From assembly GCA_014905635.1 (NCBI GenBank), contig JABVCE010000011.1, positions 1,054,001 to 1,118,000 of the forward strand: a DNA stretch of 64,000 nucleotides, given 5' to 3'. Source of the DNA: Scenedesmus sp. PABB004. Taxonomy: Eukaryota. Each line of letters starts with the position of its first letter. The first letter of the stretch is position 1. This document shows positions 12,537 through 61,021 of this stretch, piece after piece. Under the pieces are notes generated by a model, which did not search any database, was not told the DNA's origin, and saw only the letters and a program-made list of their open reading frames with translations. A program made the position numbers and the translations under genes.

Positions 12537-15500
12537 ATGTTTCGGCCGTCCTGCGCCGCCGCGCAGGCGCGCCCGGCGCTGGCCCGGCGCTGGCTTGCGG
12601 CGCCCGTCCTCTGTCACGGCGTGCGGCCTGCGGTGGGATGTCAGGTGGGGCTGTCGCGGCGTCGTGCGGCGGCGGGCGCCGCGCTGCTGCCTGGCCGCGA
12701 CGCGCGCATGCATGCTGCCCGGCCCCCCGCGACGCCGCTCTGCCGCCTGCTCGCAGGCGTCCCTGAGCAGCATCAGCAGCAGCAGCAGCCGGCAGCTGGT
12801 CGCCACCGCGCGCAGCGGCGGCGCCGCAGCGGCCCTGCAGCCTGGAGCGCGGCGACGCCGCGGCGTCGCGGCCGCGGCGGCCGCGCCGCCGCCCGGCGAG
12901 GGCGCGCTGCCGGCTGACGACGACCTGGCGGCCGACGACAACATCATTCTCCTGGGCAGCGAGGACGAGGAGGACGACGAGCTCGGCCTCGGCGGCGCGG
13001 GCGATGCCGACTTTGTGCGGGCGATGGCGACCGCGCGGCGGCGCGCCGAGTCCGGCAGCAGCGGCGACGACGACGGCGACGACGACGGCTGGGACGACGG
13101 CGCGCGGCGCTCGTCGGAGGTGCGCGGCGGGGGGAGCCAGCGGGGCGCGCCCGCCGCCCCCGGCGTCCGCAACCGCGCGCTGCCGCGCCGCGCGCCGCCC
13201 CGGCCGCGCGGCCGCGCGCTCGCAGGACGGCGACGACGACGCCTTCTGGTCGACCCACCGCGAGCGCGTGTACCTGGTCGGCGTGAGCTGCAGCGGCCGC
13301 GCCGGCGGCGGCGGCGGCGCGCGGCGGCGCGGCGGCGAGGCCGCGTACAGCGTCACGGAGTCGCTGGAGGAGCTCGGGCGCCTCGCCGAGACGGCGGGGC
13401 TGCAGGTCGTGGGCAGCACGTACCAGGCGCTCGAGGCGCCGAGCAACGCGACCTACATCGGCAGCGGCAAGGTCGCCGAGGTCGCGCAGGCGGTCGCCGC
13501 GTTCAAGGCGCGGACGGACGCCGGCATCGCCCGCGCAGGCCGGCCGCCGGCGCGCGCCCGCGCGCAACACGTGCGACGCGTGCCGCGTGCCGCCGCCGCC
13601 GCGCGCGCTCGGCGCCGCGCGCCGCAGGTGGACACGGTCATTTTTGACGACGAGCTTTCTCCTGGGCAGCTGCGCAACCTGGAGAAGGCGTTTGCGCGCA
13701 AGGACGGCCAGCAGGCGCGCGCGCGGGGGTGCCGCCTGGCTGTAGCGGCTGCGGTCCCCCCGGCGGCGCGCGCGGCGGGGCCGCGCCCGGCGACGCCCGC
13801 GCCGCGCCGCGCCGCGCCGCAGGTCGCCGTGGCGGACCGCACCGCGCTCATCCTGGACATTTTCAGCCAGCGCGCGCGCACGCGCGAGGGCAAGCTGCAG
13901 GCGCGCGCGCTGCCCTGCGCGTCCGCCGCCGCGCCGCGCTCTGCCCGTGCCGTGCCCGCCGCCCGCGCGCCCGGCCCCGCGCGCCCGGCCCCGCGCGCCC
14001 GCGAGCCCCTTCCTGCCCGCCCGCGCCCTCCTCCCCTCCCCCTCCCCTCCCCTCCCCAGGTGGAGCTCGCGCAGACGGAGTACCAGCTGCCGCGCCTCAC
14101 GCGCATGTGGACGCACCTCGACCGCGTGGCCGGCGGCGGGCAGGTCAAGGGCGCGGGCGAGAAGCAGATCGAGATCGACAAGCGCCTCCTGCGCGACCGC
14201 GCGGCGGCGCTGCGCCGCGAGCTGCAGGCCGTGCGCACGCACCGCGCCGCGCACCGCAGCCGCCGCAGCGACGCGCCCATCCCCGTCGTCGCGCTCGTGG
14301 GCTACACCAACGCGGGTGCGGCGCACCGCCGCCGCCCGCCCGCGCCCTCGCTCGCGCTGCGTCCCCCCTTGCGGCGCGCCGCCGCTCCCCTCCCCGCCCG
14401 CGCGCGCCGCCCGCGCACCCGCGCCCGCGCACGCCGAGCCCGCCCCCGCTGCCGCGCACCCGCTGCCCGGCAGGCAAATCTACGCTGCTCAACACGCTCA
14501 CCGCGGCGGGCGTGCTGGCGGAGGACAAGCTCTTTGCCACGCTCGACCCCACGACGCGCAAGGCGCGCGCGCTGGGACAGCGGGGCCTAGGTTCAGGGCG
14601 ACGGCGGCCAGCGGCAACGGGGCTCCTGATCCTGCCGCGGGCGTGCAGGTCAAGGAAACGCCACGCGCGCGCACCAACGAATCACGCGCTGCGCTCGGGG
14701 CGCCGCCGCGCGCAGGTCCGGCTGGACGGCAACCTGGAGGTCCTCTTTAGCGACACGGTCGGATTCATTCAGAAGCTGCCCACGCAGTTGGTTGCAGCGT
14801 TCAGGGCGACGCTGGAGGAGATTGCGGCCGCCGCGGTGGTGCTGCACGTGCTCGACGTCTCCGCGCCAAACGCGGCCGCGCAGTGCGCGGCGGTGCTCAA
14901 GGCGCGGCGCAGCCGGCGCCGCGGCGCCCGCGGCCGGGCGGCGGCTCCCTCCCCTCCTCCCCGCTGAGCGCGCCGGCACGCGCCGCGCGCCGCGGCAGGT
15001 GCTGGAGGAGCTGGGCGTGCAGGACCTGCCGCTCGTGACGGCATGGAACAAGCTCGACGCGTGCCCCGCGCCCGACGCGGTGCGCTCGCTCGCGGCGGCG
15101 CGGCCCGACACCGTTGCGATCAGCGGGGCGACCGGGGAGGGCATGGACGCGCTGCTGGCGGCGATCGGGGACAAGCTCGCGGAGGCGATGGTGGAGGTGC
15201 AGGTGCGCGCCGTGCCGCCGCCGCGCCGCCGCCGCCGCCGCCCGCCCATGCCGCCTGCCACCGCGCCACCCCCCCCCCCCCACACACACACACACACCCT
15301 CGCCGCAGGTGCTGCTGCCCTACTCTGCCGGCGCGCTGCTGGACGACGTGCACAAGATGGGCGTCGTGAGCGCCGAGGCCTACACCGAGGCCGGCACGTC
15401 GCTCACCGCGCGCGTGCCGCGCTGCCTCGTCGGCCGGCTGGCGCGCGCGGCGGCCGACGCCGCGGCGGCGGGCGGCAGCGTCAGCAGCGGCGTGTTCAGC

Positions 15501-20558: not shown

Positions 20559-22274
20559 ATGCTCCTGGGGGCGCGCTCCGCCACGCAGCTGCGGCGAATT
20601 GCCGCGCCGCGGCACCTACGGGCGCGGCAGTCGCGCCTGGTCACCGCGGCCGCCGCGCAGAAGCAGGACGTGCTCCTTCGCAGGCACGAGTGGCCGCCGC
20701 TGCGCCCGCCGCCCGCCGCCGCGCATGCGCGGGCGCGCCGCGCCCCCCTTGCAGCTGCCCGGCAGCTCACCGGCGCGCCCTTCGGCTCACCCGCTGCCGC
20801 CGCCGCCACCTGCGCTGCAGCCTGAGCGACATGGGGGAGGTCGCGGTGCTGGTGGCCGACGGCACCCAGCTGGTCCAGGAGGCGATGACCCGCCACAAGA
20901 CGGCGCCGACCGCGACCGCCGCGCTCGGCCGCACGCTGCTGGGCGCGGCGCTGCTGGGCGCGTACCGCAAGGAGGAGGAGCAGATCCAGGTGCGCGCGGC
21001 GGGGGGGGGGGGGGCACACGGCAGAAGTAGGGGAGGCAGCGGCTGGCGCGCGCCGCACGTGCGCGACGCAGCGCGCCCACGCGCGCGCCGTTGGCACCCG
21101 CGCGCGCTCGCCGCGCGCAGATCCAGTTCAAGGGCGACGGCCCGCTCGGCGGCATCCTCGCGGTCGCTGACACGCGCGGCCAGGTCAAGGGCAAGGTCGG
21201 CAACGCAGCCGCCGACCCGCCGCTGCGCCCCGATGGCAAGCTGGCGGTCGGGGCCGCGGTCGGCCAGGGTGCGTGCGGCGCGAGCGCCGGTGGTCGCCGC
21301 GCCGACTGCGCCGCGCGCCGCGCGCCGCGCGCCGCCGGCCGACCGCGCCCGCGCCACCCGCGCGCCGGCGCGCAGGCCAGCTGTGCGTGACGCGCAGCCA
21401 CCCGGGGCAGCCGCGGCCGTACATGGGAGTCGTGAATATCGTGAGCGGCGAGGTGGCCGAAGACCTTGCCACGTACTTGGTGCGCGGATCGGCCGCGCAG
21501 CGGACGCGGGCGGCGCAGCGCGGCGCGGGCGCGGACACGCGGCGGGGCCCGCAGCGGCGGCCGAGTGGGCGCCCGCGCGCTGCAGGCGGAGAGCGAGCAG
21601 ACCAACTCGGCGCTCGCGCTGGGCGTGTGCATCGGCCGCGACCTCAACGTGCGCTCGGCGGGCGGGTACCTGGTGCAGGTGTGTGCGCCCCGCGCCGCGC
21701 CGCGCCGCGCCGCGCGGCGGCGGCAGTCTGCCAGCGGACCGGCCGGCCGGCGGGCGCCTCACGCGGCGCGGCGCGCGCGCCGCCGCCGCCGCCGCAGGTG
21801 CTGCCGTTTTGCAGCGACGAGACGCTGGACCAGCTGGAGGCCAACCTCACCGGCATGCCCTCCATGACCGCGCTGCTGAACGAGGGCCTCACGCCGCAGC
21901 AGATCACGGACCGCATCCTCGCCGGCCTCGGCAGCAGCGCGAGCGGCGAGAGCATCGTGCCGCGGTGGGCGGGGACGCGCGCGGCGCGCGGCGGGGGGGG
22001 GGGGGGCAGCGCGGCGCTGAGCGCGCAGCGCGGCGGGGGCGCTGCAGCTTGCGCGGGCGCCGACGCGTGGGCCCCCGCCGCCGCCGCCGCTGCGCCCAGG
22101 TACGGGCCGTGCCAGGCGGCGGAGCTCAAGGGCCGCATGCTGCGCGCCGTCGCGTCGCTGGGCGCGGCCGAGGTCAAGAGCATCATCGAGGAGCAGGGGC
22201 ACGTCGAGGTGACGTGCGAGCTCTGCAACGAGCAGTTCAGGTTTGCTGAGCAGGAAGTCATGGAGTATGTGTGA
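20559..22274 (+). CDS. HSP33: HSP33 redox-regulated chaperone, plastid-targeted
   Basis: HKTAPTATAALGRTLLGA, IQFKGDGPLGGI, SGEVAEDLATYL-AESEQTNS, AGGYLVQVLP, VEVTCELCNEQF. Six introns, the first with a GC donor at 20684. Confidence 0.95.
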
Positions 22275-22288
22275 GGCTGCTGCGCGGG

Positions 22289-22293
22289 TGTAA
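22289..22293 (+). terminator. Chlorophyte poly(A) signal TGTAA
   Basis: TGTAA 15 nt after the HSP33 stop. Confidence 0.55.
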
Positions 22294-22710
22294 GCTGCTG
22301 CGAGTGCGTGGCGTGGCGCGGTCCGCACGCCGGGCAGCGGCTGGCCGGCGGGCCGGCTGGCCGGCGGGCCGCGCCGCCGCGCGCTCGGCCACCCCAGCTG
22401 CTCGCCGACCGGCCGCGACCGAGGGCGGCCCAGCCGCCTGCCGCCCGGCAGCGGCGGCGGCTTCGGCGGCAGCCGCGCCGCCGGCAGCGGCAGCGCGGGC
22501 ACGCGCGCGGCGCGCCGCAAGGCGGACCGAGCAGTCTGGCGCCAGGCACCGGAACGGCCGGAAATGCGCGCTGCGGCTGCAAGCAAAAGCCGCCGCCGGG
22601 CCCATCGCGTTTTTGCGATGCGAGCCCCGGGCCATGCTCGCCGGGCGGCCGCGCGCCCGCCCTTTTTCGCCGACGACCGCAGAGCGGCTGCTTTCGTCGG
22701 AAGGAGCACC

Positions 22711-24320
22711 ATGCCGTTCAAGCGCTACGTGGAGATCGGGCGGGTGGCCCTGGTCACGTTTGGCGAGGACTACGGCAAGCTCGTGGTCATCTCCGACGTG
22801 GTCGACCAGAACCGGGTGCGGCGCGGCCCGGCGGCGGGCGCGGGCGATGCGCGGTGCCCGATGGCGCCGCAGCTCGGCGGCCGGAGCCGCTGCGGGCGCG
22901 GCGCCGGGCTGGGGGCGCGGCGGGGCGCGGCCATGGCGCCGGGGCCGGCGCGCCACCGCGGCCGGGGCGGGCAGCAGCTCGGGGGCCGGCAGAGGCAGCC
23001 GGCTGCTGCAGGGCGGAGCAGCACCAGCCCCGGCCGGGGCCGCAGCCCAGGCCGGCGCAGCGGGAGCGGCGGCGGTTCACCAGCCCGGCGGCGCGACGGC
23101 CGGCCAGCGGGCGCGCCGGCGGCGGGCTCGCGGCAGCAGCGGCGGCCGCCGTCGTGTGCTGCTGGCCGGCGGAGCGACCGCGCGCGGTCGCTGCAGCGCG
23201 CGGCGTGCAGCCTGAGCACGCTGGAGCCGCGGCGGCAGGGCAGCAGCCGCTGGCGGCGCAGCAGCAGCGGGAGCCGCTGCAGCAGCAGCGCCGGCGGCGC
23301 CCCTCGCGCGGCGACGCCACGGCCGGGGTCGGTGCACGGTCCCTGTTGCGCTTCGGAGTGCCCGTTGCGCTTGCTGCAGCGCAACGGGAACCGTGCGCCG
23401 ACCCCGGCCACAGTCTCCGCGCCCGCGAGTCGCCGCGTCGGATGCAGCCGGCGGCCGCCGCGCCGGCCGCGGCGCGGCGCACCCGGGCAGCGCGCGCGCC
23501 CAGCAGCGGGGGGGGGGGGGGGGGGGGGGGGCGGGGAGGGGCAGCCGAACGCGGCGCGCCGGCCGCGGCCGCTCGGCGTCACCGGCGCCGCGCCCGCCGC
23601 AGCAGCAGCGGCGCTCACGCGCGCCCCTCCGCGCGCGCAGGCGCTCGTGGACGCGCCGACGGAGGCGCGCCGCGTGATGAACTTCAAGCGCCTCACGCTG
23701 ACCGACCTCACGGTCGAGATCCCGCGCCTGGCCAGCAAGAAGGTCCTCACCCAGGCCTTCAACGCTGCCGGTGAGCGGCGCGCGCGGCCGGCGAGGGCCG
23801 CGGGGGGACCGCGGGCGCGGCGCGGCCGGCGAGCGCGGCGGCAGGGCGGGGCGTGCCGGCGCGGCGGCGGCGGCGGCGGCGGCGGCGGCAGCGGCGGCAG
23901 CGGCGGCGGCGGCGACGGCGGCGACGGCAGCGGAGGGGCCGCAGCGGCACCGGCAGCGCGCGGCGAGCGGCAACGGCAGCAGGGCGGCTCCTGCGCTCGC
24001 GCGCGCGCGCGCGCACATGCGCACGCGGCAATGGCGGCGCGTGCCCTGCGCACCCTGCGCGCCCTGCGCACCCTGCGCGCCCTGCGCGCCCTGCGCGCCC
24101 TCACGCCCTGGCCACCGGCGCCGCGCGCCGCCCCCGCCGCGCGCGCCGCGCAGACGTCGCCGGCAAGTTTGCGGCGTCCGCGTGGGGCAAGAAGCTGGCG
24201 GCGCGGTCGGCCAAGGCCAGCATGTCTGACTTTGACCGCTACGCCGCGATGGTCGCCAAGGCCAAGAAGAACCGCGCCGCGCGCAAGGCGTTCAACCAGC
24301 TGAAGAAGGCGGCCGCCTAG
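22711..24320 (+). CDS. RPL14: 60S ribosomal protein L14 (eL14)
   Basis: [15 protein letters not shown]...[20 protein letters not shown]...[10 protein letters not shown]...|...SAWGKKL...MSDFDRY. Introns 22816-23640 (825 nt) and 23771-24153. Confidence 0.97.
23321..23409 (+). ncRNA. Candidate intronic pre-miRNA-like hairpin
   Basis: Arms 23321-23352 and 23378-23409 pair at 31 of 32 positions (two G-U pairs, one C-A mismatch) around a 25-nt loop. Function is inferred only. Confidence 0.5.
24043..24096. repeat. 9-bp intronic tandem repeat x6
   Basis: (R)CCCTGCGC six times in RPL14 intron 2. Confidence 0.85.
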
Positions 24321-24755
24321 GCGCGGCGCGGCCGGAGGCAGCTGTGGTTGGGCGGGCGGGGGCGTCGGGAGGGCTGAAGAGCGCTGTACGCGGGGCGCCC
24401 GGCGGGCCGGCGGCTGCAGGCGCAGCGGCCGCCGCTGGCGCGCCCGGCGCGGCGGCGCGGCGCGCCTGGTAACACGGGCGCGCGACACTGGCGGCCGTGC
24501 GCGGCGCAGCAGCAGCGCACGAAGCAGCCGGGCGGTCAGTGACGGTCAACCTTTGCTGCAGCGACGCGCTGGCCCAGCATCGCGCCGGACGCTGCCCGCA
24601 CCGCCATCGCACGCCAGCACGCGCCCACGCACGCTGCGGCGCCAGGGAGCGCGGCGCCGTCCGCTGTCGCGCGTTCGCTGCTCGCGCGGCTGCCGCGCCC
24701 TGCTGCCGCTGGCGGCGCGGCGACAGCTATAGCGTCCGTCACATAGCGCGCAACC

Positions 24756-27700
24756 ATGACGGAGCCGGCGCCTGAGGGCGGCGGGCCGCTGGCGCGGCCA
24801 GCGGGTGCGCGGGCGCCGTCGCGAGCGGCAACGGCCCGCGCCGCCGCGCCGGCGCGCCTCACGCCCCGCACGCCCGCCCAGACGCGCCCGACGATGGCGA
24901 GCCCGAGGCCAGCTTCCTGCCGCCCTTTGCCAACGCCGACAACCGCGCACTCGATGCGCACATCCGGGTGCGCACGCGCGCGCCGCTGCTCGCCCTGCGC
25001 CCTGCGCCCCGCGCCGCCGCGCCGCCGCGCCGTGCCGGCAGCTCGCCCGCGTGGGTCTCTCACGCCTCCCTCGGCCCCGCAGGCGCTGGAGCGGCAGCTG
25101 GCGCAGGTGGACGCCGCGCTCGAGGAGAATGGCGGCCGCATCGGCGTCATGGACGAGCACCTCAAAAACGTGCAGCAGGAGATCACCTACACCGAGAGCC
25201 GGGTGGGGGCCCGCGCGGCGGCAGCGCCGCGGCGGGCGCGCGTGCGCGCGCTGGCCGACCCCCCCTCCTGTCTCGACGCGCCGCGCCGCGCGCGCTGCGC
25301 CGCGCCGCGCGCGCTGCGGCAGGTCGAGGCGGAGAAGCGGGAGGCCGAGACGGAGCAGCACCTCAAGATCATGGCCGACAAGGAGATCGTGAGCTGCCGG
25401 GCGGCCCTGCCACGGCCCTGCCGCGCCGCAGCGCGCGCGGCGCCGGCCGGCCGCCGACCGCGCCGCCGCCGCGCGTGCGCGCGCGCGTGCAGGCGCGCAT
25501 GCGGACCGACCTGGAGCGCCTCGGCCGCGAGCGCGGGGAGCTCGCGGAGCGCGTGGCGGGGCTGCAGGCGGGCATCTTCCGGGGCAGCGAGCGGCTGGAC
25601 CAGTTCAAGGAGCGCATGAGCTGGAACCAGGAGGAGCTCGAGCAGTGGGCGGTCGCGCAGCGCCAGAAGGAGGAGGACAACGCTGCGCTCGAAAAGTACA
25701 GGTGTGGCGCGCGCGGCGCCGCGTGCGCGAGCGCGCGCGCGTGCGCTGTGTGTGCGCGGCCGGCGCGACGCGCATGCCTCGCGACGCGCCTGCGCCCGGC
25801 CAGGCGGCAGGACGAGGGCAAGCTCAAGGACCTGGGCCTGGCGGTGGAGAAGCTCACCACGCGCGTCGCGGCGGCCAAGGACGCGCTGGACGCGGAGATC
25901 ACCGACACGCAGGCCGCGCAGACGCAGCTCGACCGCACCGCACAGGACTTTCGCGCGCTGCACGCGGAGCGCCAGGAGCTCATCCGGCAGTGGGACGAGG
26001 CGCGCGAGGCGATGCGGCACCGCGACGAGGCCATCCAGGCGCGCGCCGCACCGGGGCGGCGGGCGGCCGCGGCGGCGGGCGGGCGGGCGCGGCAGCGGCT
26101 GCCGGGGCCGCGGCGGCGGCCCACCGCGCCCGCCGGGGGCGCCCGGCCCTCGCCGCGCTGCGCAGGCGCTGGCGGCGGCGTATGCGGAGCGCAAGGCGCA
26201 GCTGAAGCAGAAGCAGGCGGAGCTGGACGCGCAGGCGCGCGCCCTGGCAGGTGTGCGCGCGCGGCGGCTGGCCGCTGCTGGCTGGGCTCGGCTCGCGGCG
26301 ACCCGGGCGGGGCGGCGCCGAGCGACGCCGCGGGGCCCCCCTGCGCGCCCGCAGGCGAGGGCGCGCGCAACCGGGAGCTGGAGGCACAGATCAGCCAATA
26401 CGAGCGCGAGCTGGGCAAGGCGCGCGACGCGCAGGTGGGCGGGAGGAGGGCGAGGCAGCGCGGTCCTGGCGGCGCGGGCGTCCGGCCGCGCCGCGCCGCG
26501 CCGCGCCGCGCAACCACCGAGGCGCTGGGAGCGCCGCCTGCACGCAGGCGGCCGAGGCGGCCCGGCTGGACGCGGCGGCCAGCCAGGTGGAGGTGCTGCA
26601 GAGCACGCTCGCCAAGGCGGCCAACGACCTGGCCGACGCGGGGACGGGCAACGCCGCGGCGCGGCGCGCGCTGGAGGAGAAGCGGTGCGGGCGGGGGCAG
26701 CGGCGGGGTGGTGTCGTGGCCGGCAGCGTGGGCCCCCGTGGCTGACGCCGCGACGCGGCCGCCGCCGAACCGCAGCGCGCGGCTGGAGGGTGTGCGCAAG
26801 AAGCACGCTGCGCTCAAAGCGCAGCTCGAGGGCGAGGCGGGCCAGCTGGGCAGCCTCGAGTCCAAGGCGCGCGGCGCTCTGGGAGCGACGCGGCGGCCCG
26901 GCCGAGGCCCGCGCCGCGCCTCGGCTGCGCTGCGCCCGGCCTCCCATGCCCCTGCCCCGCGCCGGCTGCCGCAGGTATCGCAGCTGGAGGCGCTGCGCCG
27001 GCGCGATGAGGCGGGCCTGCGCGCGCTGCAGGGCGAGCACGAGGCGCTGCGGCGCGAGGCGCTGCGCGCGGGCGCGTCGCTGCACGCGCTGCGCGTGCGC
27101 GAGAAGGAACTGGTCAGCGAGATCGCGGGCGGGCAGGGCCAGGCGCGCAACCTGGGCGCGCGCATGCGCGCGCTCGACGAGCAGCTGCTGCGCCAGGGCG
27201 AGCTGATGTACGCGGTGGACCTCAACCTGCAGGCGCGGCGCGGCGCGGCGCGTGCTCAGCGCGCCGGGCGTGCGCTGGCGCTGCCGCCGCCCCGCGCGCC
27301 GACCGTGCGCGCCCCGCGCGGCCGCGCCGCAGGAGATGGAGCGCCGCATCGCGCGCGCGGGCGGGCGCCGCAGCGACGACGAGGCGCGCGCGCTCAACGC
27401 GCGCATCGCCCAGCTGACCGAGGTCCTCGCCGGCGTGAACGCGGAGCACGCGATGCTGCTGGGCCAGGTCAAGCAGGCGGAGACCGACCTGGGCGAGGCG
27501 CGGCGCGCGAGCGGCGCGCTCGGCGCCGAGCAGCGCCGCGTCGGCGACGCGATCGATCGGCTGCGCCTCGAGACGGACAGCGCGGCGCGCGCGCTCAAGG
27601 CGGCCATCGGCGACAAGGAGCGCCAGCTGGTGGAGCACGACGTGCTCAAGCTGCAGGTGCACCGGCTGCGGCAGCTGCTCTCCATGGCCGCCGACGAGGT

Positions 27701-29702
27701 GTACAGCCTCGAGTCGCGCAAGGTGCAGCTCAAGCTGAGCCTGGACGAGCGGCGGCACGAGATCGAGGTGGGCGGCGCGGTTGGGCCGCCGCGCGCGCGT
27801 CGTCGCGGCCCGAGGCGCGCGCGCGCGCGCTGCCCGCGTGCACGCGGGCGCCTGGCCGACGCGCGCGCGCGCGGCGGCGCAGGTGCACCGGGACGGCCTG
27901 CGGGCGGAGCTGAAGCTTGTGCGCGACGACATCCACAGGTGGGGCGGAGGGGCACCCCACCCGCCGTCAGCGCGCCCGGCGGCCGTCAGCGACCGCTCCC
28001 GCGCGCGCGCGCCGTCCGCGCCGGCAGGGTGACGCTGGAGCTGCGCGACCGCGAGGCGCGCGCGGAGGCGCTGGGGGCCAAGTTTGAGGCGCTCGCGGGG
28101 CGGGGCCGCGGTGCCGACCCGGACGGCGGCGAGCCGCGGAGCCAGGCGTACTACATCATTAAGGTGAGGCCAGATCACACGCACACCTGGGGATGGGGCC
28201 AAAGGGCTCTGCTGCTGTGTGATGAGTACATCACTGTGTGCGTATTTGCTTGCGGGTGTCCGGAGGTGGTTGTGGCAGGGAGGGAGGGGCCGTGGCCGTG
28301 CGGGGCCGCCGCGCGCGCGGCGCCGAGCGCGCCGGGCGGGGCCGCCGCCGCCGCGCGCGCACGCAGGCGGCGCAGGAGCGGGAGGGGCTGCAGGTCGCGG
28401 GCGACGCGCTGGACGCCAAGATCACGCAGTCAGAGGCGGAGGTAGGGCGGCGGTCACGCACGGCGCGGCGCGACGCGCGGTTGGCCGGCGGCGGCGCAGC
28501 GCGCGCGGCGCAGCTCGCACGGGGTCTCGCAAGAGCGGCGCGCGCCCGGCCGCGCGCAGGTGGCGATGCTGCACAGCACGCTGGCGCAGATGCAGGCGAC
28601 CAACGTGGCGTTCAACTCCAGCCTGCGCGCGGGCGACACCAAGGCGACGCAGCAGGAGAAGGCGGCGCTGCGGTGCGCGGGGTGGGGTTTGTGAGTGGGA
28701 GGAGGGGTCTGCGCGCCACAGGCAGGGGGAGCCAGAGCCCGGCTGGCCGACGCGCCGCGCGCCGGCGGCGGCCCCGCGCCGCGCACGCGCAGGGAGCAGC
28801 TGGACGCCAGCTACGACCGACTCAAGGCGCTGCGCGCCCAGGAGGCAGCGCTGCTGGCCGAGGCCGCGGCCGCGGCGGCGGCGGGCAGCAGCAGCGACGA
28901 CGAGCTGGCGGCCATGACCGCGGCCGTGGCCGACCTGGCGCGCAGAAAGGTGGGGCGGCGCGTGGCGGGGCCGGGGCTGTCGGGGCCGGGGCTGGGGCGC
29001 GCGCGCGCGCGCGGGGGTGCGGGAGACGGTGCCCGCCCAGCCCGCCGCACGCGCCCCCGCGGCCCGCGCAGGCCGAGGCGGAGCGGCAGCTGGACGAGCA
29101 GCGCGAGCGGGAGGCCCGCGCGGCCAAGGCGCTGGCGCGCGCGCAGAAGCTGGTCGCGACGCAGGCGGCCATGGCCGCGGCGCAGGGCGGCGACGCCGGC
29201 GGCGGCGACGGCAGCGGCAGCGCGCGCGGGCGGTCGTCAGGCGGCGCGGGCGGCGCGGCCGCGCCGCTGGACGCGCAGGAGGTGCAGCGAGAGGTGCAGC
29301 TGGCCGAGGCGCGCGGCGTGACGCGCACGATGCTGCAGGAGCTGCGCGCGCTCGCGGTCGCGCACCCGGGTGAGGCGCGGCGCGCGGCGCGGCGCGCGGC
29401 AGGAGCGGCGCGCGCGCGCCCGCCTCTCAGCGCCCACCGCCGCACCGGGCGCAGAGGCGGGCATCGCCGGCGCGCTCGAGGCGGCGGGCTTCAGGCTGCC
29501 GGCCGGGGCCAGCAGCGCGGCGAGCAGCCGCGCGGGCAGCGTGGCCGGCGGCAGCCGCGCCGGCTCCCTCAGCAGCGGGCCGTCGGCCGCGAGCAGCCTC
29601 GGCGCCGCGAGCGCCAAGGGCGCCGGGCGCTCAGGCGGTGGCGGTGTCGCCCGGATCGCGTCGCTGAAGACCGTGGAGCTGGGCGGCGGCGAGGGCTGCT
29701 GA
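24756..29702 (+). CDS. CCDC39: CCDC39/FAP59 axonemal 96-nm ruler coiled-coil protein
   Basis: FLPPFANADNRAL, MDEHLKNVQQE, MSWNQEELEQW...QKEEDN, AQTQLDRTAQDFRALHAERQELIRQW, DEVYSLESRK, EPRSQAYYIIK|AAQEREGLQ...GDALDAKI. About 18 introns, three with GC donors. Confidence 0.93.
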
Positions 29703-45350: not shown

Positions 45351-45435
45351 CGCGGGCGCCGTCGGCGCAGGATCGCTCAAAAGCGCCGACCGCGTCGCGC
45401 GCACTTTGAGCGATCCTGCGGTGACGGAGCCCGCG
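45351..45435. ncRNA. Candidate pre-miRNA-like hairpin downstream of PDE gene
   Basis: 31-nt arms 45351-45381 and 45405-45435 include a perfect 16-bp core CGCAGGATCGCTCAAA/TTTGAGCGATCCTGCG. The loop can extend the stem (GCGC-CGAC/GTCG-GCGC). Confidence 0.5.
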
Positions 45436-46054
45436 CGCACTTTCCATCATACTGCACAGTTTGATTGTACTTGCTTGCGTGGCGGCGCGCGCACGCGCGT
45501 GGAGCGCGGTGCCCGCGCAGCGCGGCACGCCCGCCGCCGCGCCGCGCCGCCCGCGCCCGCCCGCAAGCCTGCCTGTCTATTGCCTCCCGCGTTGGGGGTG
45601 TGCATGGATTGGCTGCGTGCGCGCCGCGCACACCGTTGGAGTGCTGGGGCGCCGCGTTGGCGCCGGCAAGTACGACTGCGTTTTGAGTTGGCAGCCGCGC
45701 CCGCCCGCCGCCGCCGATCGCGCCCGACCGCTGGCGCTGCAGCGGACGCCGCGGGAGCTCTTGTCGCTCGGCGAGCGGGCCTGGGCGGGCAGCCCGCCGG
45801 GCGCCCGGGGCACGGCAGCAGCAAACCCCCTCGGCTCGAAGGCCCCTGCGCGCGCGCCCGGCCGCCCCGCGCCGCCGGCGCTGCCCAGATCGACGCTCCC
45901 CGCCGCTCCGCACCGCGCACGCCAGCCCTCCGCCCCACCCGCCCGCCGTGCGCGCGCGCCGAGCCCGGCTCTTGCCATCACCGGCCCCTGGCGCGTGCGC
46001 TGCCCGCGGACTGGCGCATGCGACGCGCTCTGGCATGAGGCCGGCCGGGCAGAC

Positions 46055-51024: not shown

Positions 51025-53155
51025 TCACTGCGACGCGGCGCCCGCGGCCTGCTGCTGCTTGAGCCGCGCGACCGCGCGCCAGCCGATGTCGGTGCGGTAG
51101 TACGCGTCGTCCCAGGCCACGCCCGCGACGCCCGCGTACGCGGCGGCCTGCGCGGCGGCGACGTCGTCGCCGAGCGCCGTCACGCCCAGCACGCGCCCGC
51201 CCGCCGCGACGAGCCGCCCGCCGCCGTCGAGCGCGGTGCCGGCGTGGAAGACCTTGGCCCCGCCCGGCACGCCGCCGGCGGGGGGCAGGCCGATGGGCGT
51301 GCCCTTGGCGTAGGCGCCGGGGTAGCCCTTTGCCGCCATGACCACCGTCAGCGATGCGCGCGGGCTCCAGCGCAGCGACACGTCGCGCAGCCGCCCGTCG
51401 CACGCCTGCGCGCGGCGCGCCGGCCGCGGCGCCGGCCGCGCGTGAGCCCCGCCCGCCCCGCCGCGCGCCGCGCGCCGCAGCCTCGGCCCGCCCCCGCCAC
51501 CAGGCCCCGCGCGCCGCCGCGCCGCCGCGCAGCCGCCGCGCCTGCAGTAGCGCCGCGAGCAGGTCGCTGTCGAGGCGGGCCATGAGGCCCTGGCACTCGG
51601 GGTCGCCGAAGCGCACGTTGTGCTCGAGCAGCTTGGCGCGGCCGTCCTTGATCATCAGCCCCGCAAACAGCACGCCGCGGAAGGGGCAGCCCTCTGCGAC
51701 CATCGCGCGCGCAGTGGGCAGCACAATGTCGGCCATGACCTGGGGGAGCGCCGGACGCCGCGGGGCTCAGCGTAAGGCTCAGCGGCGGGGCTCAGCGGCG
51801 GGGCTCGGCGGCGGGGCTCGGCGGCGGGCACGGGCGGCGGACGCGGGCGGCGCAGCGTGCGTGCTGCGCGCGGGGTGCACAGCGCGGCGTGCGTGCTGCG
51901 CGCGCGGCGCGCCTGGGCCTCAATTTCGGGCGTGACCACTGGCGCGGGCGAGTACGCGCCCATGCCGCCCGTGTTGGGCCCCGTGTCGCCGTCGCCCGCG
52001 GCCTTGTGGTCCTGCGCACGCGCGCGACGCGGCGGCGCGCCCCGCCCACGCGTCAGCGCCGCGCGGCGCGCCGCGGGCGGCGGCCGCGCGTGCGCGCGTG
52101 CGGGCGCGGGCGCGGCGGGTCGACCCCGGACGCTCATCACCTGCGCGCTCGCGAGCGCGACCGCGTCCTCGCCATCCACCAGCGCGAAGAAGCTCGCCTC
52201 CTCGCCGTCCAGAAACTCCTCAATCACCACCTGCGACCCTGACATAGGTTGCAGCGGCGCGCGGCGCGCGGCGCGGCGGCGCGCGGCGTGGGCCGTCTGC
52301 GCGCCCGCGCGGCCGGCCGCCGCCGGCGCGCTGCGAGCCCCCGCGCGGCGCGGCGCAGGCGGCCGGCGCCCGTCCCCTCCCCTCCCCTCTCCCTCCCCGC
52401 CCCGCCCCCGCGGCGTGCGCACCCGCGTCGCCGAAGACGGCGCCGACGAGCATGTCGTCCACCGCGGCGCACGCCTCGTCGACGCTCGCCGCGACGATGA
52501 CGCCCTTGCCCGCGGCGAGGCCGCTCGCCTTGACCACGATCGGCGCGCCCGCGGCGCGCACGTACGCCTTGGCGGCCTCCGGGTCGGTGAACACGGCGTA
52601 GCCGGCGGTGGGGATGCCGTGCTTGGCGCAGAGGTCTTTCATAAAACTCTTGCTGCCCTCGAGCCGCGCCGCGGCCGCGCTCGGCCCAAACGCGCGCACG
52701 CCCGCGGCGGCGAGGTCGTCGGCGAGCCCCGCGACGAGCGGCGCCTCGGGCCCCACCACGACGAGCCCGACGCCGTGGGCCTTGCAGAAGGCCGCGACGG
52801 CGGCGTGGTCGGAGACGTCGAGCCCCGCCGCGTCGGCCGAGACCTTGGGCTCGGCCGCGATGCCGGGGTTGCCCGGCGCAGCGTAGAGCGTCCCGCACAG
52901 CTCGCTCTGCGCCAGCTTCCACGCGAGCGCGTGCTCGCGCCCGCCGCTGCCGACGAGCAGCACGTTGGTGGGCGCGAGGCCGGGCGCGCCGGCGGCGGCG
53001 GCCGCCGCGGGCGCGAGCCGCCGCCGCTGCGCCCGCGCGGGGGCCGCGGCGCGCCGCGGCGCGGGCCGGGCCGCGGGGCCGGGCCGGGCAGGGGCTGCCA
53101 GCGGCGCCCGGCCGGCCGGGAGGCCCGCCGCGGCGGGGCGGTGGCAGAGGAGCAT
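51025..53155 (-). CDS. purD: Phosphoribosylamine-glycine ligase (GAR synthetase), organelle-targeted
   Basis: [61 protein letters not shown]...[37 protein letters not shown]. Four introns, two with GC donors. Confidence 0.97.
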
Positions 53156-54418
53156 GGCACGGTGCCGCCGCTGCTGCTGTTGCTGCTGCCGCGCCTGCGG
53201 GCTGGAAACGGCGCCGCGGTGGCGGCTGCCCTGCCGGGCAGCTCGGAAAACGGGGCGGCGAGAGTCCGGGAGCCGGCTGACGCGCGCCGGGGCGGGCACG
53301 CGGGCGCGGCGTGCCGGGGGGCGTGTTGCGGCGCCTGGCGGTCTGCGCGACCGGGGCTGCTCTGCGGTGTGTGTGAGTGCGTGTGTGTGTGGTGGAGAAT
53401 GGCGCCGACGCGCCGGCGCGGGAGCTGGCGTGCCGAGCGGGCTGCTGCCGGGACCGCCGAGGGAGGGCCTCGCGCGAGCTCTGCGCCGGGCGGAGCTCCG
53501 CGCAGTCGTCCTGGCGTCGCGCTGGTCTGGTCGTCGCTGATCGGCGGCGCAGCTGCTGCTGCCTGCCACCGCCGCTGCTGACTGCTGGTGACGCCGACGA
53601 GCGCCGCGTTGCGGTTGCCGCCGCGCAATCCCCGCGGGCCAACGCGCACGCACACGAGTATGGAGGGGGGGGGGGGGCGCAGTCGCCGGGTTGGGTTGTG
53701 GTTGCGCCGACGGATCCAGCCGCCGAGGTCCGCCCGCCGCCGCCGCCGCCGCGGCCATGCGGCGGCGCGTGGTCGGGCGGCGCGTGGCCGGGAGGGCAAG
53801 GAGAGAGAGATGGCCACGAACCAAACAAGTGCCAAGGGCCAGCCCACCCCCCGGCGCCGCTCGCGCCGCCGCCGGTCGCCTAGATGTCAAACAAGCTCGG
53901 CCGCCGACAGACGCCAGCAGGCAGCGGCAATGCGCGGTGTGTGGGGTGCGGTGGTGCGGTGCGGTGCGGTGTGTCGCGCCCGCGCCCCGCAGACGGGGGC
54001 GCGGCGGCGCTCCTTCTTGCGCAGCGGCAGCTGCAGGCACGCACGCGCGCTTCGCGCAGTGGGGGCACAAAACGTGCAGCGGAGTCCCACCGCCGCTGTT
54101 CTTGTCGTTGCCCTTGTTGGTGTTGGCTAGTGTGTTTAAGAAGAAGCATGCGCGGGCGCGCACGTGGCAGCTAGCGGGCGCGGGCGCCGCGGCGCCGCAG
54201 GGGGCGCGCCGCGGCGCGCGCGCCCAAGTCGAGGTCGCACCGGCGCGCAGCTCCCTCCCTCCTTTTAGGCCGGCGCGCGCTCAAGGCGGAAAGGGCGCTC
54301 AAGGCGGGAAAGGGTGACAAAAAGAGTAGACGGCAGGGGCCCCACCGCAGCTTTGCCGGCCGGCTAGGGCGCCTGGGCCGGCCAGGCGCCACAAACAACA
54401 AGGGAGCGCGGCCGCCGC

Positions 54419-55340
54419 TCACAGCACCAGCATGCGGCGCTTCTTGGGCGGCACAGCGCGGTCGCCGTCCTCGCCCTCCTCCTGCCCCGGCGCGCCGCGG
54501 CTGCCGCCGCCCGCGCGCTGCGCGAGCGCGATCGCGGCCGCGTTGTCCGCCGCGCCCGCGGCCGCGACCGCGGCCATCAGCGCCGCGCCGCTCACGCCGT
54601 GCGCGCCGAGCACGGCGGGGTCGTCCGCCGCGGCCACGGCCGCCGCCGCCGCGGCGGCCGCCGACAGCAGCGAGTGCGGCGCGCCGAGCCCCGCGAGGCC
54701 TGCCAGCCCGCCGACGCCCATGGGCGCCGTGCTCAGCGGCGCCGCGGGCGCGCCGCCGGCGCTGCCGGCGGCGCTGGGCTCGGCCGCCACCGCGGCCGCC
54801 GCGCGCTCGGCCCTGCCGGCCGCGGCCTCGGGGTCGAGGCGGACCAGGAGGCGCTGCAGCTCCGCCGGCAGCGTGGAGCCGGGGACGATCGCCCGGCCGC
54901 CCGCCGCCGGCGCGGGCGAGGGCGGCCTGGGCGCGGCAAACGCCTCCGGCCGCGGCGCGCCGGCGGCGAGGCCCCCGCCCGGCGGGGTCAGCACCAGGCT
55001 GGGCGGCGCCGCGAGAAGCGGCGCCGCGGACGCGCCGCCCGCCAGCGCGGCGCCGGCCGCGTCGGTCCCGGCACTGCCCGCCGACGCGCCGCCGCTCAGC
55101 GCCGCCTGGTGCTGCTGGTGCTGCTGCAGCAGCTGCGCCTGCGCGTTGACAAGCGCCTGCTGCAGCAGCTGCTGCACGTCGATGCCCTGCGGCAGCAGGC
55201 CCTGCAGGCCCTGCAGCGCCTCGCTCGTGGACGGCGCTGTGCCGCCGCCGGGCGCAGCGCCGCCGCCGCCGGCGGGTTCGCCCGCGCTCGTGCCGGACAG
55301 GCTCTGCGCGGGCGCCGCCGCGCCGCGCGGCTCCGGGGTG

Positions 55341-55372
<32 letters not shown>

Positions 55373-56207
55373 GTGCGGCGCTGGCGCGGCGCCGCCGCCG
55401 CCGGCCGCCGCGGCGGCGCCGCCACCGGCCTGCAGCTCCTTGACGGCGCGCTCGAGCGCTGCGTTGTGCGCCTTGAGCTGCTCGATGTACTTGATGACCT
55501 CCTCCAGGAAGCACGCCGTGTTGGCGCGCTCCGCGTGCGGCACCAGCTTGCGCAGCAGCTCCAGCCTGCGGGGCGCGACCGGGCGGCGCGCGCGTGGGCG
55601 CGCGGCGCGACGGCAGCGGCGCCCGCGCTCGGCGCGGCGGCGCCGCCGCTGCGGCGTCCGGTTCGGGCGCCCGCGGCGCCCTGGATCGAGTACGCGCTGC
55701 TGCGCCCGCGGAGAGCGCCCCGGCGCGCCCCGGGCGCGCTGCGTGGCGCCGGGGCGGGCGCCCAAGGAGCACCCCGCATGCCGCGCTGTCCCTCGTCGCC
55801 GGCGCGTCACGCGGGCGGCCCGCCGACCGCCAAACCGCGCTGGGCGTCCCTGCGCACCTCTCGTTGATGCGCGTCCGGCGCCGCGCCTCGGCCTGCTGAT
55901 GCCGCGAGGCGTAGTGGCTGCTGCTGCGCGAATCGTTGCTGCGCGTGCGCCCTCGCGAGCCGCCGACGCGCTCCTCGGCCTCACCGCCGCCGGGCTTGGC
56001 GCCGCCGGCGTGGTGGGCGCCCGCCTCGAGGTGGCCCCCATGCGCCGCGCCCGCCTGCGGGGCGTACCAGCCGCCCAGGTTGCTCAGCAGCGCCAGTTCT
56101 GCCGCCCCAAGGCCCAGGGCAGCCAGGTTGGCGCCCGGGAAGGCCGGCGGCGCCTGCTGCCCGCCTCCCCCGAGGCCGTTCTGGCCCAGCATGGCGGTGC
56201 TGCCCAT
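54419..56207 (-). CDS. bHLH transcription factor (BIM-like basic region)
   Basis: HQQAEARRRTRINER|LELLRKLVPHAERANTACFLEEVIKYIEQL plus a C-terminal NLS-like PPKKRR. One GT-AG intron. Start at 56207 or 56192. Confidence 0.9.
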
Positions 56208-56516
56208 CAACGCGATCCGGCCATGGCGCGGGATGGGGCCGGAGACTGTGCCGCGGGCGGGCGGCCGCGCGCGGTCGGCCACGGGGACACACGGGAGGCG
56301 AGCAGGCCCCGTGTTCGTGACGTGAGCCCCGTGAGGCGCGCCCTGGTTGGGGGATGTGGCGGCGCCGACAGGGCGCTGTGGAGATCGGCAGCGACGCGCA
56401 GGCGACAACGCCGCGCCGCACGGCGCGCAGCGGCCGCGCCGCACACGCGCCGCTGACGCTCGGGCCGCGGCTCACGCGCGCGCCGCGCCCGAGGTCCCTG
56501 GCCGCGCCACAGGCGC

Positions 56517-56521
56517 TTACA
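56517..56521 (-). terminator. Chlorophyte poly(A) signal TGTAA (minus strand)
   Basis: TTACA on the + strand, about 30 nt past the crooked-neck stop. Confidence 0.55.
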
Positions 56522-56549
56522 CGAGCTCCCCGCCGCGCCACGGCGCGGC

Positions 56550-58045
56550 TCACGCGCCGGCGTCGTAGTGCTCCTCCTCCTCGTGCGCCGGGGCCGCCGC
56601 CGGCGCGCCCTCCTCCTCGCCGCCGCCGCCGCCGCCGCCCTCCTCGTCGCCGCCGCGCTGCTGCTGCTGCTCGCTGCCGCCGTCGCCGCCGCCGCCGAGC
56701 TTGCGCCGCTTCCAGCGCATCGCCGCCTCGAGCAGCTTGAGGTTAGGCGCGCCGCCGGCGTCCTCAGGGAAGATGTAATCGTAATACTCCTCCAGCACGC
56801 CCGGCCCGCCCCCGGCGCGGGGCGCTTGCGCTTGACGCGCTTCGGCATCTTGCGCTCCACCGCCGTCACCGCGGCCGCGACCTCGTCGCGCCGCCTGCGC
56901 GGTGTGCGGGGCGCGCGGCGCGCGGCGGGCGCTCAGCGACGGGTGCGGCGGCGGCGCTGCTGCCACGCGGCGGCAGCGCAGCGGCGGCGCGGCGCGCCTG
57001 AAATCGCTGCAGCCCGCCTCAAAGTCCCTCCACGCCTCGAGCAGCATGACCGCCTCCTCCTTGGCCTCAGGGCTGCCCTCGCGGATGGACCTGCGGCGCG
57101 GCGCGGCGGGCAGGGCGCGGGGGCGGCGTTCGGAGGCCGCGGGCGGCGCGCGGGCGCGGCAGCAGCGCCCGCAGCAGCAGCTGGTCACCTGAAGCCGCGC
57201 TCGTAGACGGTCCGCGCGCGCGCGGCGCGCGCCTCGCGCTCCGCGGCGCTGCTGCCCTCGCCGGGCGGCGGCTCGCTGCGCGGCGGCGCGGCGCGGCGGG
57301 TGCAGGCGCAGGGCGTCGGCGGCGGGGCCGGCGGGCGGCGGGGAGGCCGCTGCGGGCGCGGTGCGCCGCGCTGCGCCGCGCGTCGCGTCGCCGCGCGCAC
57401 CGCTGCGCGGCCTGCTCGTCGTCGGCGTCGGGCTGCGGCAGCGGCTCGGCCTCGAAGCGCGCAAAGCTGATCCAGACCTTGACGTGCTTCGTGCGGTCCA
57501 GCAGGCGCTCGTACAGCAGCCGCGTGCGCTCGCGGTTGCCCTGCGCGCGCGGCGGGGCGGGCGGGCCGGCGCGCGGGGCGCGTCGGCGTCCGACGCGCGC
57601 CGGCGTGCGGCGGCGCGCGCGGGCGGGCGCGAGCCCACACGCAGCGCGGCGCGGCGCTGCAGGCTCTGTGTGTGAGCGTTTGGCCGCGTTCAGCCGCACC
57701 TGGCCGATCTCAAAGTCGATGTAGGCCTTCCAGACCGCCTCGGGCATGTCGAGCACCGGCTGCGCGATCGCGAGCTCGTACAGCGCGCGCGCCCGCCCCG
57801 CCTCGGCCAGCAGCAGCTCCAGCTCGGCGTACCTGGGCGGCGCGCGCGTGCGCGCGTGAGTGCGCGCGCGTGTGTGAGGAAGGGCGGCGGCGAGGCGCGC
57901 CAGCGAGGCGGCGGCGGCGGCGGGCGGCGGCGGCGGGCGGCGCGGGCACGCGGCGCGCACTTGAGCCAGGCCGTCGCGTTGGCGGGGTTCCACTCGAGGT
58001 ACTTCTCATACAGCGTGCGGCACCTGGGCGGCAGCGGCGGCGCGA

Positions 58046-58135
<90 letters not shown>

Positions 58136-61021
58136 TGCGTGCGTGGGCGCGGGCGCGGGCGCTGGGCGGCGCCGCGCGCCGCGCGCCGCGCGCGGCCGGG
58201 CGCTGCGCCGCGCCGCCGTCACAGGCCTCCTCACCGGTCGATGTTGCCGAGCGTGAGCTCCAGCGCGATGTACTCCCGGAACAGCTTGTCCTTGGGGCAG
58301 CTGCCCAGCGCGAGGCCGAGGATGCGCCGCGCCGCGGGGAGGCGCTTCGACCGCACCTCGAGCTTCGCCGCGAGGAGCCAGAGCTTGGCAAACGTGAAGG
58401 AGCCGTGCGGGACGAGCTTCAGCGCCGCCCTGCGGCGGCGGCGCAGCGTTGTGGGCGCCCCGCGCTGGCCCCAGCCGCCGCCCGCGCCCCGGCCGCCCAA
58501 TCCGCCCCCTCCGGCCCCCTCCTCGCCGCGGCGCTCGGCGCGCACGCGCGCGCGCGGCGCGCACCTGTAGACCTCGCGCGCGCGGTCGGCGTCGCCGGCG
58601 TCGAGCTCCTCGAAGAGCGCGTACTTTATCCACAGGTACACGTAGCGCCGCCAGTAGCGCTTGTCCGCCCCCGGCGGCAGGTTGGCGACCGCGCGCTCGT
58701 ACACCTGCGAGGTGCGCGCGGGCGTGGGTGTGAAGGGGGGGCGGCGGGTGCGTGGGTGTGGGTGTGGGGAGGGGGCGGGGTCAGGCCGGCGGCGCGAGGG
58801 CCGGGAGCCAGCGGGCGCGGCGGGCGGCGGCGCGGCGCGCGCGCGTGCCTCGCGGATGCGCTCCGTGTCGTGCGTCGACTCCTCGAGCTTCACGTAGTCG
58901 AACCACGCGTCGTAGTTGAGCGGGTCGGCCTTGACCTGGGCCTCGTACGTGAAGCGCCGCTTCGACAGCACCACGTCCTCAATGCCCTCCCTGCCGGACG
59001 CGCCACGGCCACGCGGCGGCGCGGTCACGCGGCGGCGGCGTGAGCGTCAGCGCGGCGGCGCGCGAGCGCGGCGGCGCCGCGCCCACGCGCGGGCCGGGCC
59101 GTCCCCTCCTGCTCCCGCCCGCACCCTCTCCCCCCCCTGCCTCCCTCCCTCCCTCGCTCCCCCCGGCCGCGCGCCGCGGGGGCCGCACCGCGAGCCGTGC
59201 TGCTTCTCGAACGCGACGAAGCGCGCGTAGAGGCCCTGCGCGGCGGCCTTGGGCAGGTGGTCCAGCGCGTAGCGAAAGATCGCGCGCGCGCGCTCCGGCT
59301 CCTTGACCAGCTCCTCAAACTCGGCAAAGCGCAGGAAAAACTCCTCCTGGCGGCGGCGGTTGGTGTTGTGTGCGGGAGAAGGGCGCGCGCGCCGCAGGGA
59401 GAGACAGGGCGTGAGCCCGGGGCGTGTGGTGCGCGCGCGGCGGCGGCGCGCGGGCGGCGCGGGGGCCAGCCGCACCGTGTGCGCATCCTCGCCGAGCGCC
59501 TCCAGCGCGCGCTCGTAGCAGCTGCGCGCGCGCTCCACCTGGTTGTGCTGCAGCTCAAACTGCGGGGCGGCGCGCGGCGCAGCTGGAGCCGCCACTGCGC
59601 CGCGCGGCGCGCCCCGCCCCGCCCCGCGTTGCGCGGCCCCGGGCGGCGCGGCGCGGCGCGGCGCGCGCACCTTTGCGTAGCGCACCCACGCCTTGACGCT
59701 GGGCAGCACCTCCACGTAGCGCTCGTACACGGCGCGCGCGCGCTCCACCTCGGCGTAGCGCAGCTCAAACTGCGGCGACGCGCCGGCGCCCCGGCGGCGG
59801 CGGCGGCGGTCGGGGGGCCGGGGGCCGGGCGGCGGCGCGCGCGCCAGACACCCATACACCCACACACCCATACACACATGTTCACAAACAAAACAACAAA
59901 CAGACGCGTTTGCACAGCCCCACCTTGATGTAGGCCATCCACGCGGCGTGGTCGGGCTCAAAGCTCATCCAGCGGTCAAAGATGAGCCGCGCCTTGGCGG
60001 TCTCCTTGACCATCTCCTCCATGTGGATGTACTTGTACCACAGCTGGTCCACGCGCGGCAGCAGCGACACCGCGCGGTCCCACACGTTGCGCGCGTGGTT
60101 GACGAAGCGGTGCCGCATCTCCATCTCGGCGTACTGCCGCGCGGCGCGGGCGGCGCGGGCGGCGGGCGCGGCGTGAGCGGGCGCGGCGCGGGGCGTGAGC
60201 GGCGCGCGAGGGAAGGGGAGGGGGAGGGCGGCTGGGGGACGCGTCCGCGCCGCCCGCGCCGCGCCGCGCCAGCGCCGCGCCGCGCCGCGCCGGCGCCGCG
60301 CACGCGTGGCCCACCTTGAGCCAGAAGGGGACGTTGGTGTAGTCGACGTCGATGGCCCGCTCCCACACGCTGCGCGCGCGCCGGAAGTCCTTCTGGCTCT
60401 CCTCCCACGTCGCGTACTGCGGCGCGGCGGCGCGGGGGCGGCAGTGCGGCGGGGGCGCGTCGGCGGGGCGCGCCGCCGCTGCCCCCGCCTGCCGCCGCGG
60501 GCCGCCCCGCTGCGACGCCCGCCGCCGCGCCCGCCGCCGCGCCGCACCTTGGTCCATATGCTCGGGTTCCACCGCCCCACGCGCCGCACGTTGTCCTCAA
60601 ACTCCTTGCGCTTGCGCAGCCTGCGCGCGCGCGCGCGCGCGTGCCGGGCCGCGGCCGCGGCGGCGGCGCGTGAGCGGCGGCGCCGCGCGCCGCCATGCGC
60701 CTCGCGCGCGCGCTGCTCACGCTCGCCCGCCCGCGCGCCGCCGTGCCGCGGCGCGGCGCGGCGCGGCGGCACACAGCAGCCCCTTGCAGGAGGCGCGCGC
60801 GCGCGCGCGCACCGGTACTCGGCGAGCTCCTCGGGGTCGGTGATGATGGTCTTGGGCGCGCTGAAGTCGTCCTCGAGCTGTATGTCCTTCGACTCGCGCA
60901 GCAGCTGCTCCGCCGTGATCTGGCGCGCCGCGGGCGCCTTGTTCTTCACCTTCATGCTCTTGGGCATGCGGATGTCGTTCACGCTGCGCGGCGCGGCCGC
61001 GCCGCCGCCGGGGCCGCTCAT
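56550..61021 (-). CDS. CRNKL1: Crooked-neck (CRN/CLF1/SYF3) HAT-repeat splicing factor; one apparent frameshift near C-terminus
   Basis: [114 protein letters not shown]. About 15 introns, two with GC donors. Confidence 0.96.
58051..58134. repeat. (GGGCGC)14 intronic microsatellite
   Basis: Perfect hexamer array within a crooked-neck intron. Confidence 0.9.

Follow-up and report, generated by a model that had tools for sequence, protein, structure and literature searches.

In the alga Chlamydomonas reinhardtii, hairpins embedded in protein-coding genes are a documented source of small RNAs: in the account given by Valli et al. (2016, PMC4817775), 9 of the 18 high-confidence miRNAs are intronic and two derive from UTRs, and DCL3 also cuts hairpins located in UTRs directly. 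This precedent was also invoked in an earlier sequence-only reading of the DNA analysed here. Hairpins of this kind may also arise at the DNA level. Template switching is reported to produce whole hairpins in one step, with an enrichment in introns (Monttinen et al. 2023, PMC10710096); for primates, the same source counts more than 6,000 suitable template-switch hairpins, yet gives the number of miRNA genes as at least 18 only. MITE and foldback elements have a comparable outline, being short elements that consist almost wholly of two inverted arms. Template-switch (quasi-palindrome) mutations creating hairpins were reportedly described by Monttinen and Loytynoja in 2022. Lastly, the introns of ribosomal-protein genes often host snoRNAs, and in yeast and animals the ribosomal-protein genes use intron structures for autoregulation.

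The DNA under investigation is a 64-kb stretch (hereafter, the window) of the genome of Scenedesmus sp. PABB004, which we take to be a chlorophycean, like Chlamydomonas. Over the aligned part, which covers 61% of the query, the reading frame of a neighbouring gene is identical to an NCBI protein named for this strain. With a GC content of 79.5%, the composition of the window agrees with the figures reported for the PABB004 assembly (39.8 Mb, 78.5% GC, and 1.31% repeats), which is also described as having the smallest size and the most gene-family contractions among the Sphaeropleales genomes compared (PMC12571836). The window harbors the gene encoding the ribosomal protein eL14 (RPL14), whose first intron contains a long hairpin. 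The features of the gene and of the hairpin are the following:

22711..24320, + strand: coding region of eL14 (RPL14), three exons, 402 nt, 133 aa
22711-22815, + strand: RPL14 exon 1
22816..23640, + strand: RPL14 intron 1, 825 nt, GT..AG
23321..23352, + strand: 5' arm of the hairpin, 32 nt, pairing with 23378-23409
23353..23377, + strand: apical region of the hairpin, 25 nt, in which the inner 11 nt of the arm are repeated (23361-23371)
23378..23409, + strand: 3' arm of the hairpin, 32 nt, with ACA (23410-23412) directly after it
23641-23770, + strand: RPL14 exon 2, Pfam Ribosomal_L14e, E 8.4e-07
between exons 2 and 3: RPL14 intron 2, 383 nt, GT..AG, from the junction of an RNA contig (run X10)
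24154-24320, + strand: RPL14 exon 3, Pfam Ribosomal_L14e, E 8.9e-13

When exon 3 is compared with the PDB eL14 chains of solved ribosomes, the top match is that of wheat (E 3.8e-10). The structure of the gene is also documented by a 204-nt oligo-dT RNA contig (run X10), which spans exons 1, 2, and 3 without a single differing letter. Its first junction runs from 22814/15 to 23640/41, with an exon-1 side of just 22 letters, which is short, and its second one, between exon 2 and exon 3, covers 52 letters and skips 383 nt. Moreover, the spliced reading, in which ...DQNR is directly followed by AL..., agrees in the alignment with the contiguous eL14 of wheat. The splice sites that give intron 1 its length of 825 nt, originally proposed on the basis of the letters, are thus supported by spliced RNA, and the start codon, which had been placed at position 22712, is corrected here to 22711. 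The statement that most introns of this DNA measure 70-250 nt agrees with a small sample, i.e., the introns of one neighbouring NCBI gene model, 14/17 of which do not exceed 250 nt (median 154); RPL14 intron 1 is about five times as long as this local median.

Other features of the gene can be observed. Outside the hairpin, intron 1 is GC-rich and of low complexity; about 100 nt 3' of the hairpin, 24 consecutive G (23508-23531) are followed by CGGGGAGGGG, and this G tract is prone to the formation of a G-quadruplex on the sense strand. Intron 2 is mostly composed of a (GGC)n tract and of five to six tandem 9-nt units, CTGCGCRCC (23856-23930 and 24038-24105). Upstream of the gene, a GC-rich stem (22642-22671) precedes CCCTTTTTCG, a pyrimidine tract located about 40 nt upstream of the start codon and resembling the 5' ends of ribosomal-protein mRNAs. 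Two DNA contigs from freshwater metagenomes match the window with 0 differences, X3 at 22600-22744 and X1 at 24131-24307; these exact matches, together with the spliced mRNA present in the pond RNA run X10, indicate that the same alga, or a near-identical one, occurs in environmental data. In the four sequencing runs considered, the exact pieces are confined to exons and gene ends, and many of the low-identity pieces fall on CAG and GC repeats. These runs were available as contigs, none of which extends over 23332-23392, and they have no bearing on the expression of the hairpin.

As for the other genes of the window, matches were obtained on the + strand with an HflX-type GTPase (12767-14587), with Hsp33 (21171-22271), and with CCDC39, a flagellar axoneme protein (27207-28442, E 4.9e-55), the last one implying that this alga keeps at least one axoneme-associated gene. 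On the minus strand, the NCBI protein P0001 (1,806 aa, named CRNKL1, 51028-60955) joins the exons of a HAT-repeat splicing factor to those of phosphoribosylglycinamide synthetase (purD) by means of a 1,146-nt "intron" (about 53282-54421), and this model probably consists of two genes merged by annotation. A coiled-coil reading frame, looked up in the ESM Atlas, gave generic coiled-coil clusters only, which carry no taxonomic information.

The sequence and the coordinates of the RPL14 hairpin are exactly those given in the sequence-only reading, and so is the extent of its pairing. In the pair list of the fold, 31 of the 32 positions of each arm are paired, through 29 Watson-Crick pairs and two U.G wobbles (23333.23397 and 23344.23386), the remaining position being a C.A mismatch (23341/23389); the two arms, 25 nt apart, are identical as reverse complements at 29/32 positions. 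This inverted repeat is far beyond chance: an inverted 28-mer match like that of the arms appeared in 0 of 100 shuffled windows. The sense strand, folded over 109 nt, reaches -81.2 kcal/mol, against -49.3 +/- 3.7 kcal/mol for the shuffled sequences (z -8.59, with 0/200 as good), and the antisense strand reaches -74.2 kcal/mol (z -6.39, again with 0/200 shuffles as good). It had been claimed that the wobbles work on the sense strand only. Both G.U pairs do form on that strand; however, the C.A mismatch of the sense strand corresponds to a G.U pair on the antisense one, so that the asymmetry is reduced to 2 to 1. All three differences between the arms are T/C differences, two of which yield G.U on the sense strand and one on the antisense strand, and such a 2:1 split is what chance would give.

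The second copy of the inner part of the arm in the apical region is real: CCCGTTGCGCT has a single occurrence in the window (23361), as has its reverse complement (23378). The alternative fold attributed to this copy, which has a one-sided 20-nt bulge, is 8.8 kcal/mol worse than the main one (-68.9 vs. -77.7 kcal/mol), has a pair probability of 0.0, and is not populated. The direct repeat of the hairpin (23345 and 23364) has 9 exact nt, or 12/13 with one indel; it is reached by 48 of 500 shuffles and, taken alone, is not significant. The contrast between complex arms and a low-complexity intron is also confirmed, in that the stretch 23326-23415 is the least repetitive and the lowest-GC part of the whole intron, with a median 8-mer count of 2-7 and a GC fraction of 0.67-0.77, against 15-135 and 0.77-1.0, respectively, in most of the remaining intron.

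The criteria for plant miRNAs that Axtell and Meyers reportedly set out in 2018 are said to allow up to five mismatches in the miRNA/miRNA* duplex, of which asymmetric bulges may account for no more than three, to bar secondary stems from the duplex, and to ask for precise miRNA and miRNA* reads of 20-24 nt with 2-nt 3' overhangs, as well as for an organism that encodes Dicer-like and Argonaute proteins. As far as the hairpin criterion for plants and algae is concerned, the RPL14 hairpin contains one symmetric 1x1 mismatch and two G.U pairs, and it lies within these limits.

The whole window was also subjected to a sliding fold scan (110-nt windows, step 15, both strands), in which the RPL14 hairpin has the third GC-corrected rank among 8,520 sliding windows. 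The only windows that rank higher are those over a hairpin at 45.35 kb, which is the only stronger local structure of the 64 kb:

45353..45432, + strand: second hairpin, unrelated in sequence, with a stem of about 30 bp and located about 260 nt 3' of a phosphodiesterase stop codon

The reading frame upstream of this second hairpin contains a PDEase_I domain and, since its stop codon is only about 260 nt away, the hairpin is probably embedded in the 3' UTR of the phosphodiesterase gene. Also in this case the two strands are both able to fold (-82.1 kcal/mol and z -8.34 for the sense strand, -79.8 kcal/mol and z -6.87 for the antisense strand). The inverted copy that forms the 3' arm is bracketed by a direct repeat of 12 nt (45396-45407 and 45432-45443), unique in the window and reached by 0/500 dinucleotide shuffles; the 24 nt included between the two repeats are, by manual count, the reverse complement of 45356-45379 at 21/24 positions, and if one copy of the repeat and the intervening 24 nt are taken away, no long hairpin is left. 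A bracketing repeat is expected when a nascent strand folds back, copies itself, and returns a few bases upstream of the point of departure, and the arrangement of a 12-nt repeat around a 24-nt inverted copy can be regarded as a putative signature of template switching. The published template-switch cases may share with the second hairpin this short direct duplication at the boundary of the inverted copy. In Rfam, the second hairpin gave a match to the animal mir-339 that remained below threshold (26.1 bits vs. a gathering score of 60, E 0.048); this identity was discarded, a match below the gathering score being taken as chance.

With moderate confidence, we favour the reading according to which the RPL14 hairpin would be a young, lineage-specific inverted duplication without a demonstrated function. 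The fact that both strands fold almost equally well is expected of a palindrome arisen at the DNA level, the 2:1 split of the T/C differences fits a neutral AT-to-GC drift in a window of 79.5% GC with no need for selection, and the least repetitive and lowest-GC stretch of the intron is what would be expected of a sequence not yet eroded. The putative template-switch signature of the other, unrelated hairpin, at a distance of 22 kb, suggests that such hairpins have a mutational source. The template-switch hairpins described in PMC10710096 resemble that of RPL14 in being intronic and in carrying a near-perfect inverted copy of an adjacent sequence tens of bases away, and the stem length given there for pri-miRNAs (35 bp) is close to that found here (about 32-35 bp); unlike the RPL14 event, which is deduced from the present sequence only, the published cases were proved by ancestral reconstruction. 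On the other hand, the complexity and the lower GC content of the arms could equally reflect selective constraint. A further point against an inverted duplication is the location of the two hairpins, the one intronic and the other probably in a 3' UTR, which corresponds to that of the DCL3 substrates in Chlamydomonas. Moreover, the direct repeat of the RPL14 hairpin has just 9 exact nt and is not significant alone, and the history of the hairpin requires two or more events, or else an 11-bp hairpin that already existed.

The main alternative is that the hairpin might be an intronic small-RNA precursor, i.e., that a Dicer-like enzyme might cut it out of the pre-mRNA or of the excised intron, the resulting miRNA or hairpin siRNA being loaded into Argonaute and its output following the transcription of RPL14. 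A strongly stable stem with 31/32 positions paired, no bulges, and an apical region of 25 nt would suit this role, as would the location of the hairpin on the sense strand of an intron in an expressed gene and the 7 kcal/mol by which the sense fold is better than the antisense one; in addition, miRNAs are often intronic in Chlamydomonas, presumably an alga of the same class. A 32-bp stem presumably transcribed from the intron of a chlorophycean alga may be considered a plausible Dicer substrate, provided that the enzyme exists. The DCL3-dependent precursors of C. reinhardtii described in PMC4817775 include, like the RPL14 case, sense-strand stem-loops in the introns of protein-coding genes, and the UTR precursors of the same alga recall the hairpin at 45353-45432 with its likely location in a 3' UTR; in comparison with them, the RPL14 hairpin shows no similarity to any Rfam miRNA family. 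The absence of an Rfam match is one of the points that weigh against a small-RNA precursor: the search of Rfam 15, a check suggested in the sequence-only reading, gave no match at E <=1 in 22000-25000 and, over the full window, none that reached the gathering score, even though similarity to an already described miRNA family is not required of a new miRNA. Furthermore, one 21-nt duplex would take up all but about 11 bp of a 32-bp stem, the asymmetry between the strands is just 2:1, and the base rate is low, as the primate figures of PMC10710096 (more than 6,000 hairpins vs. at least 18 miRNAs) illustrate. RNAi is also reported to have been lost more than once among the microalgae with small genomes (PMC9871001), and the Scenedesmus assembly is small; in the searchable text of the literature on the RNAi genes of Scenedesmus, Tetradesmus, and Monoraphidium, no statement on Dicer or Argonaute for this lineage was found. 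On balance, it is unlikely that the hairpin acts as a small-RNA precursor; about half of the probability assigned to this possibility concerns a miRNA in the strict sense, and a bona fide miRNA appears distinctly unlikely.

The same inverted arms might also represent what is left of a MITE or of a foldback transposon of 89 bp, with 32-bp terminal inverted repeats, that was inserted into the intron. The discrete inverted repeat with sharp ends, the composition unlike that of the surrounding intron, and the dinucleotide AC present at both flanks agree with such an insertion, but a 2-nt AC flank does not correspond, to our knowledge, to any known target-site duplication. In contrast to MITE and foldback elements, with which it shares the structure, the RPL14 hairpin is single-copy in the window (the arms are unique in the 64 kb when searched as 12-mers and as a 28-mer with up to three mismatches) and resides in a genome reported to be very poor in repeats, with no recognisable target-site duplication beyond the AC shared by its flanks. 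The hairpin at 45353-45432, being unrelated in sequence, is not a second copy of it. Nor was a related match found in the contigs searched: a 20-mer of the hairpin arm gave 0 matches in viral contigs, and the search of metagenome contigs with both arm cores and a gap retrieved two loci, both unrelated GC-rich bacterial palindromes having only a 13-mer in common with the hairpin. The repeat content of 1.31% reported for the assembly (PMC12571836) also argues against a transposon family, and a transposon remnant is considered improbable.

Two further roles were considered. In one of them, the hairpin would be a cis-acting structure of the RPL14 pre-mRNA, either bound by eL14 or by another protein for splicing feedback or shortening the effective length of an intron that is about five times the local median. 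The idea of an autoregulatory splicing element, raised in the sequence-only reading, finds no support in the position of the hairpin, which is separated by 505 nt from the 5' splice site and by 231 nt from the 3' one, neither overlapping nor adjoining either of them; this distance from both sites is counted in favour of an inverted duplication. In addition, the structure would remove just 89 of the 825 nt, and it is a regular helix with no obvious irregularity for protein recognition. Autoregulation by eL14 is not known to us, and little credit is given to a cis-acting structure. In the other, the intron would release the hairpin as a single-hairpin H/ACA guide RNA, a suggestion that arose from the ACA following the stem immediately at 23410-23412. 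The trinucleotide, which in H/ACA RNAs directly follows the stem and lies three nucleotides from the 3' end, is there, but the search of Rfam revealed no family at E <=1 or at the gathering score, and the structure lacks an internal pocket, an H box, and a second hairpin. Interrupted by nothing more than a 1x1 mismatch, the stem has no two-sided internal loop that would serve as a pseudouridylation pocket, which in H/ACA RNAs is found about 14-16 nt before the ACA, and the candidate was rejected on this basis. The layout with two hairpins was likewise discarded, the sequence ACAGTC being a misfit to ANANNA and no second hairpin with an ACA being present downstream; next to no weight is left to an H/ACA RNA.

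If the RPL14 hairpin is an inverted duplication, as we favour, the event that most likely produced it would be template switching or fold-back priming during DNA replication, and we infer that the hairpin shares such a template-switch origin with that at 45353-45432. The short direct duplication near its centre would have arisen after the inverted duplication or along with it, and two histories may be proposed: either one switch lengthened an 11-bp hairpin that was already present, or a complete palindrome, its loop measuring 6 nt, was formed and then received a 20-nt insertion near its centre. Because its intron is spliced and belongs to a ribosomal-protein gene with high expression, the hairpin is presumably transcribed on the + strand as part of the pre-mRNA, whose transcript is predicted to fold into a very GC-rich stem of 32 bp with an apical region of 25 nt. 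If the alga has kept a Dicer-like enzyme, the length and the regularity of this stem would be enough for it to be cut into one duplex of roughly 21 nt. The cut stem would then represent raw material for a small RNA, i.e., a proto-miRNA, not yet an established miRNA gene. The RPL14 hairpin may thus be referred to as a candidate proto-miRNA, the base rate speaking against the claim of a miRNA. A combined scenario can also be conceived, in which the hairpin of RPL14 and that at the 3' end of the phosphodiesterase gene, both born by template switching, would both be substrates of a Dicer-like enzyme, as in Chlamydomonas, the former yielding a miRNA in step with ribosomal-protein transcription and the latter marking its mRNA for direct cleavage; this scenario is considered improbable.

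The meaning of the hairpin for the biology of this alga depends on which of these possibilities applies. If it is a mutational by-product, it would illustrate neatly, in an extremely GC-rich alga, the seeding of perfect hairpins by replication errors in non-coding DNA that is transcribed, and it would have little importance beyond that. If small RNAs are made from it, miRNA-like genes would exist in Sphaeropleales, the introns of housekeeping genes would be able to spawn them via the one-step route described for primates, and the finding would bear on how often, and in which way, miRNAs evolved independently in green algae. Lastly, if both hairpins are Dicer substrates, no small-RNA genes would have been described before them in an alga of the Scenedesmus type, whose genome is reported to have a GC content of 78.5%, and the birth of miRNAs would have been caught in the act outside animals.
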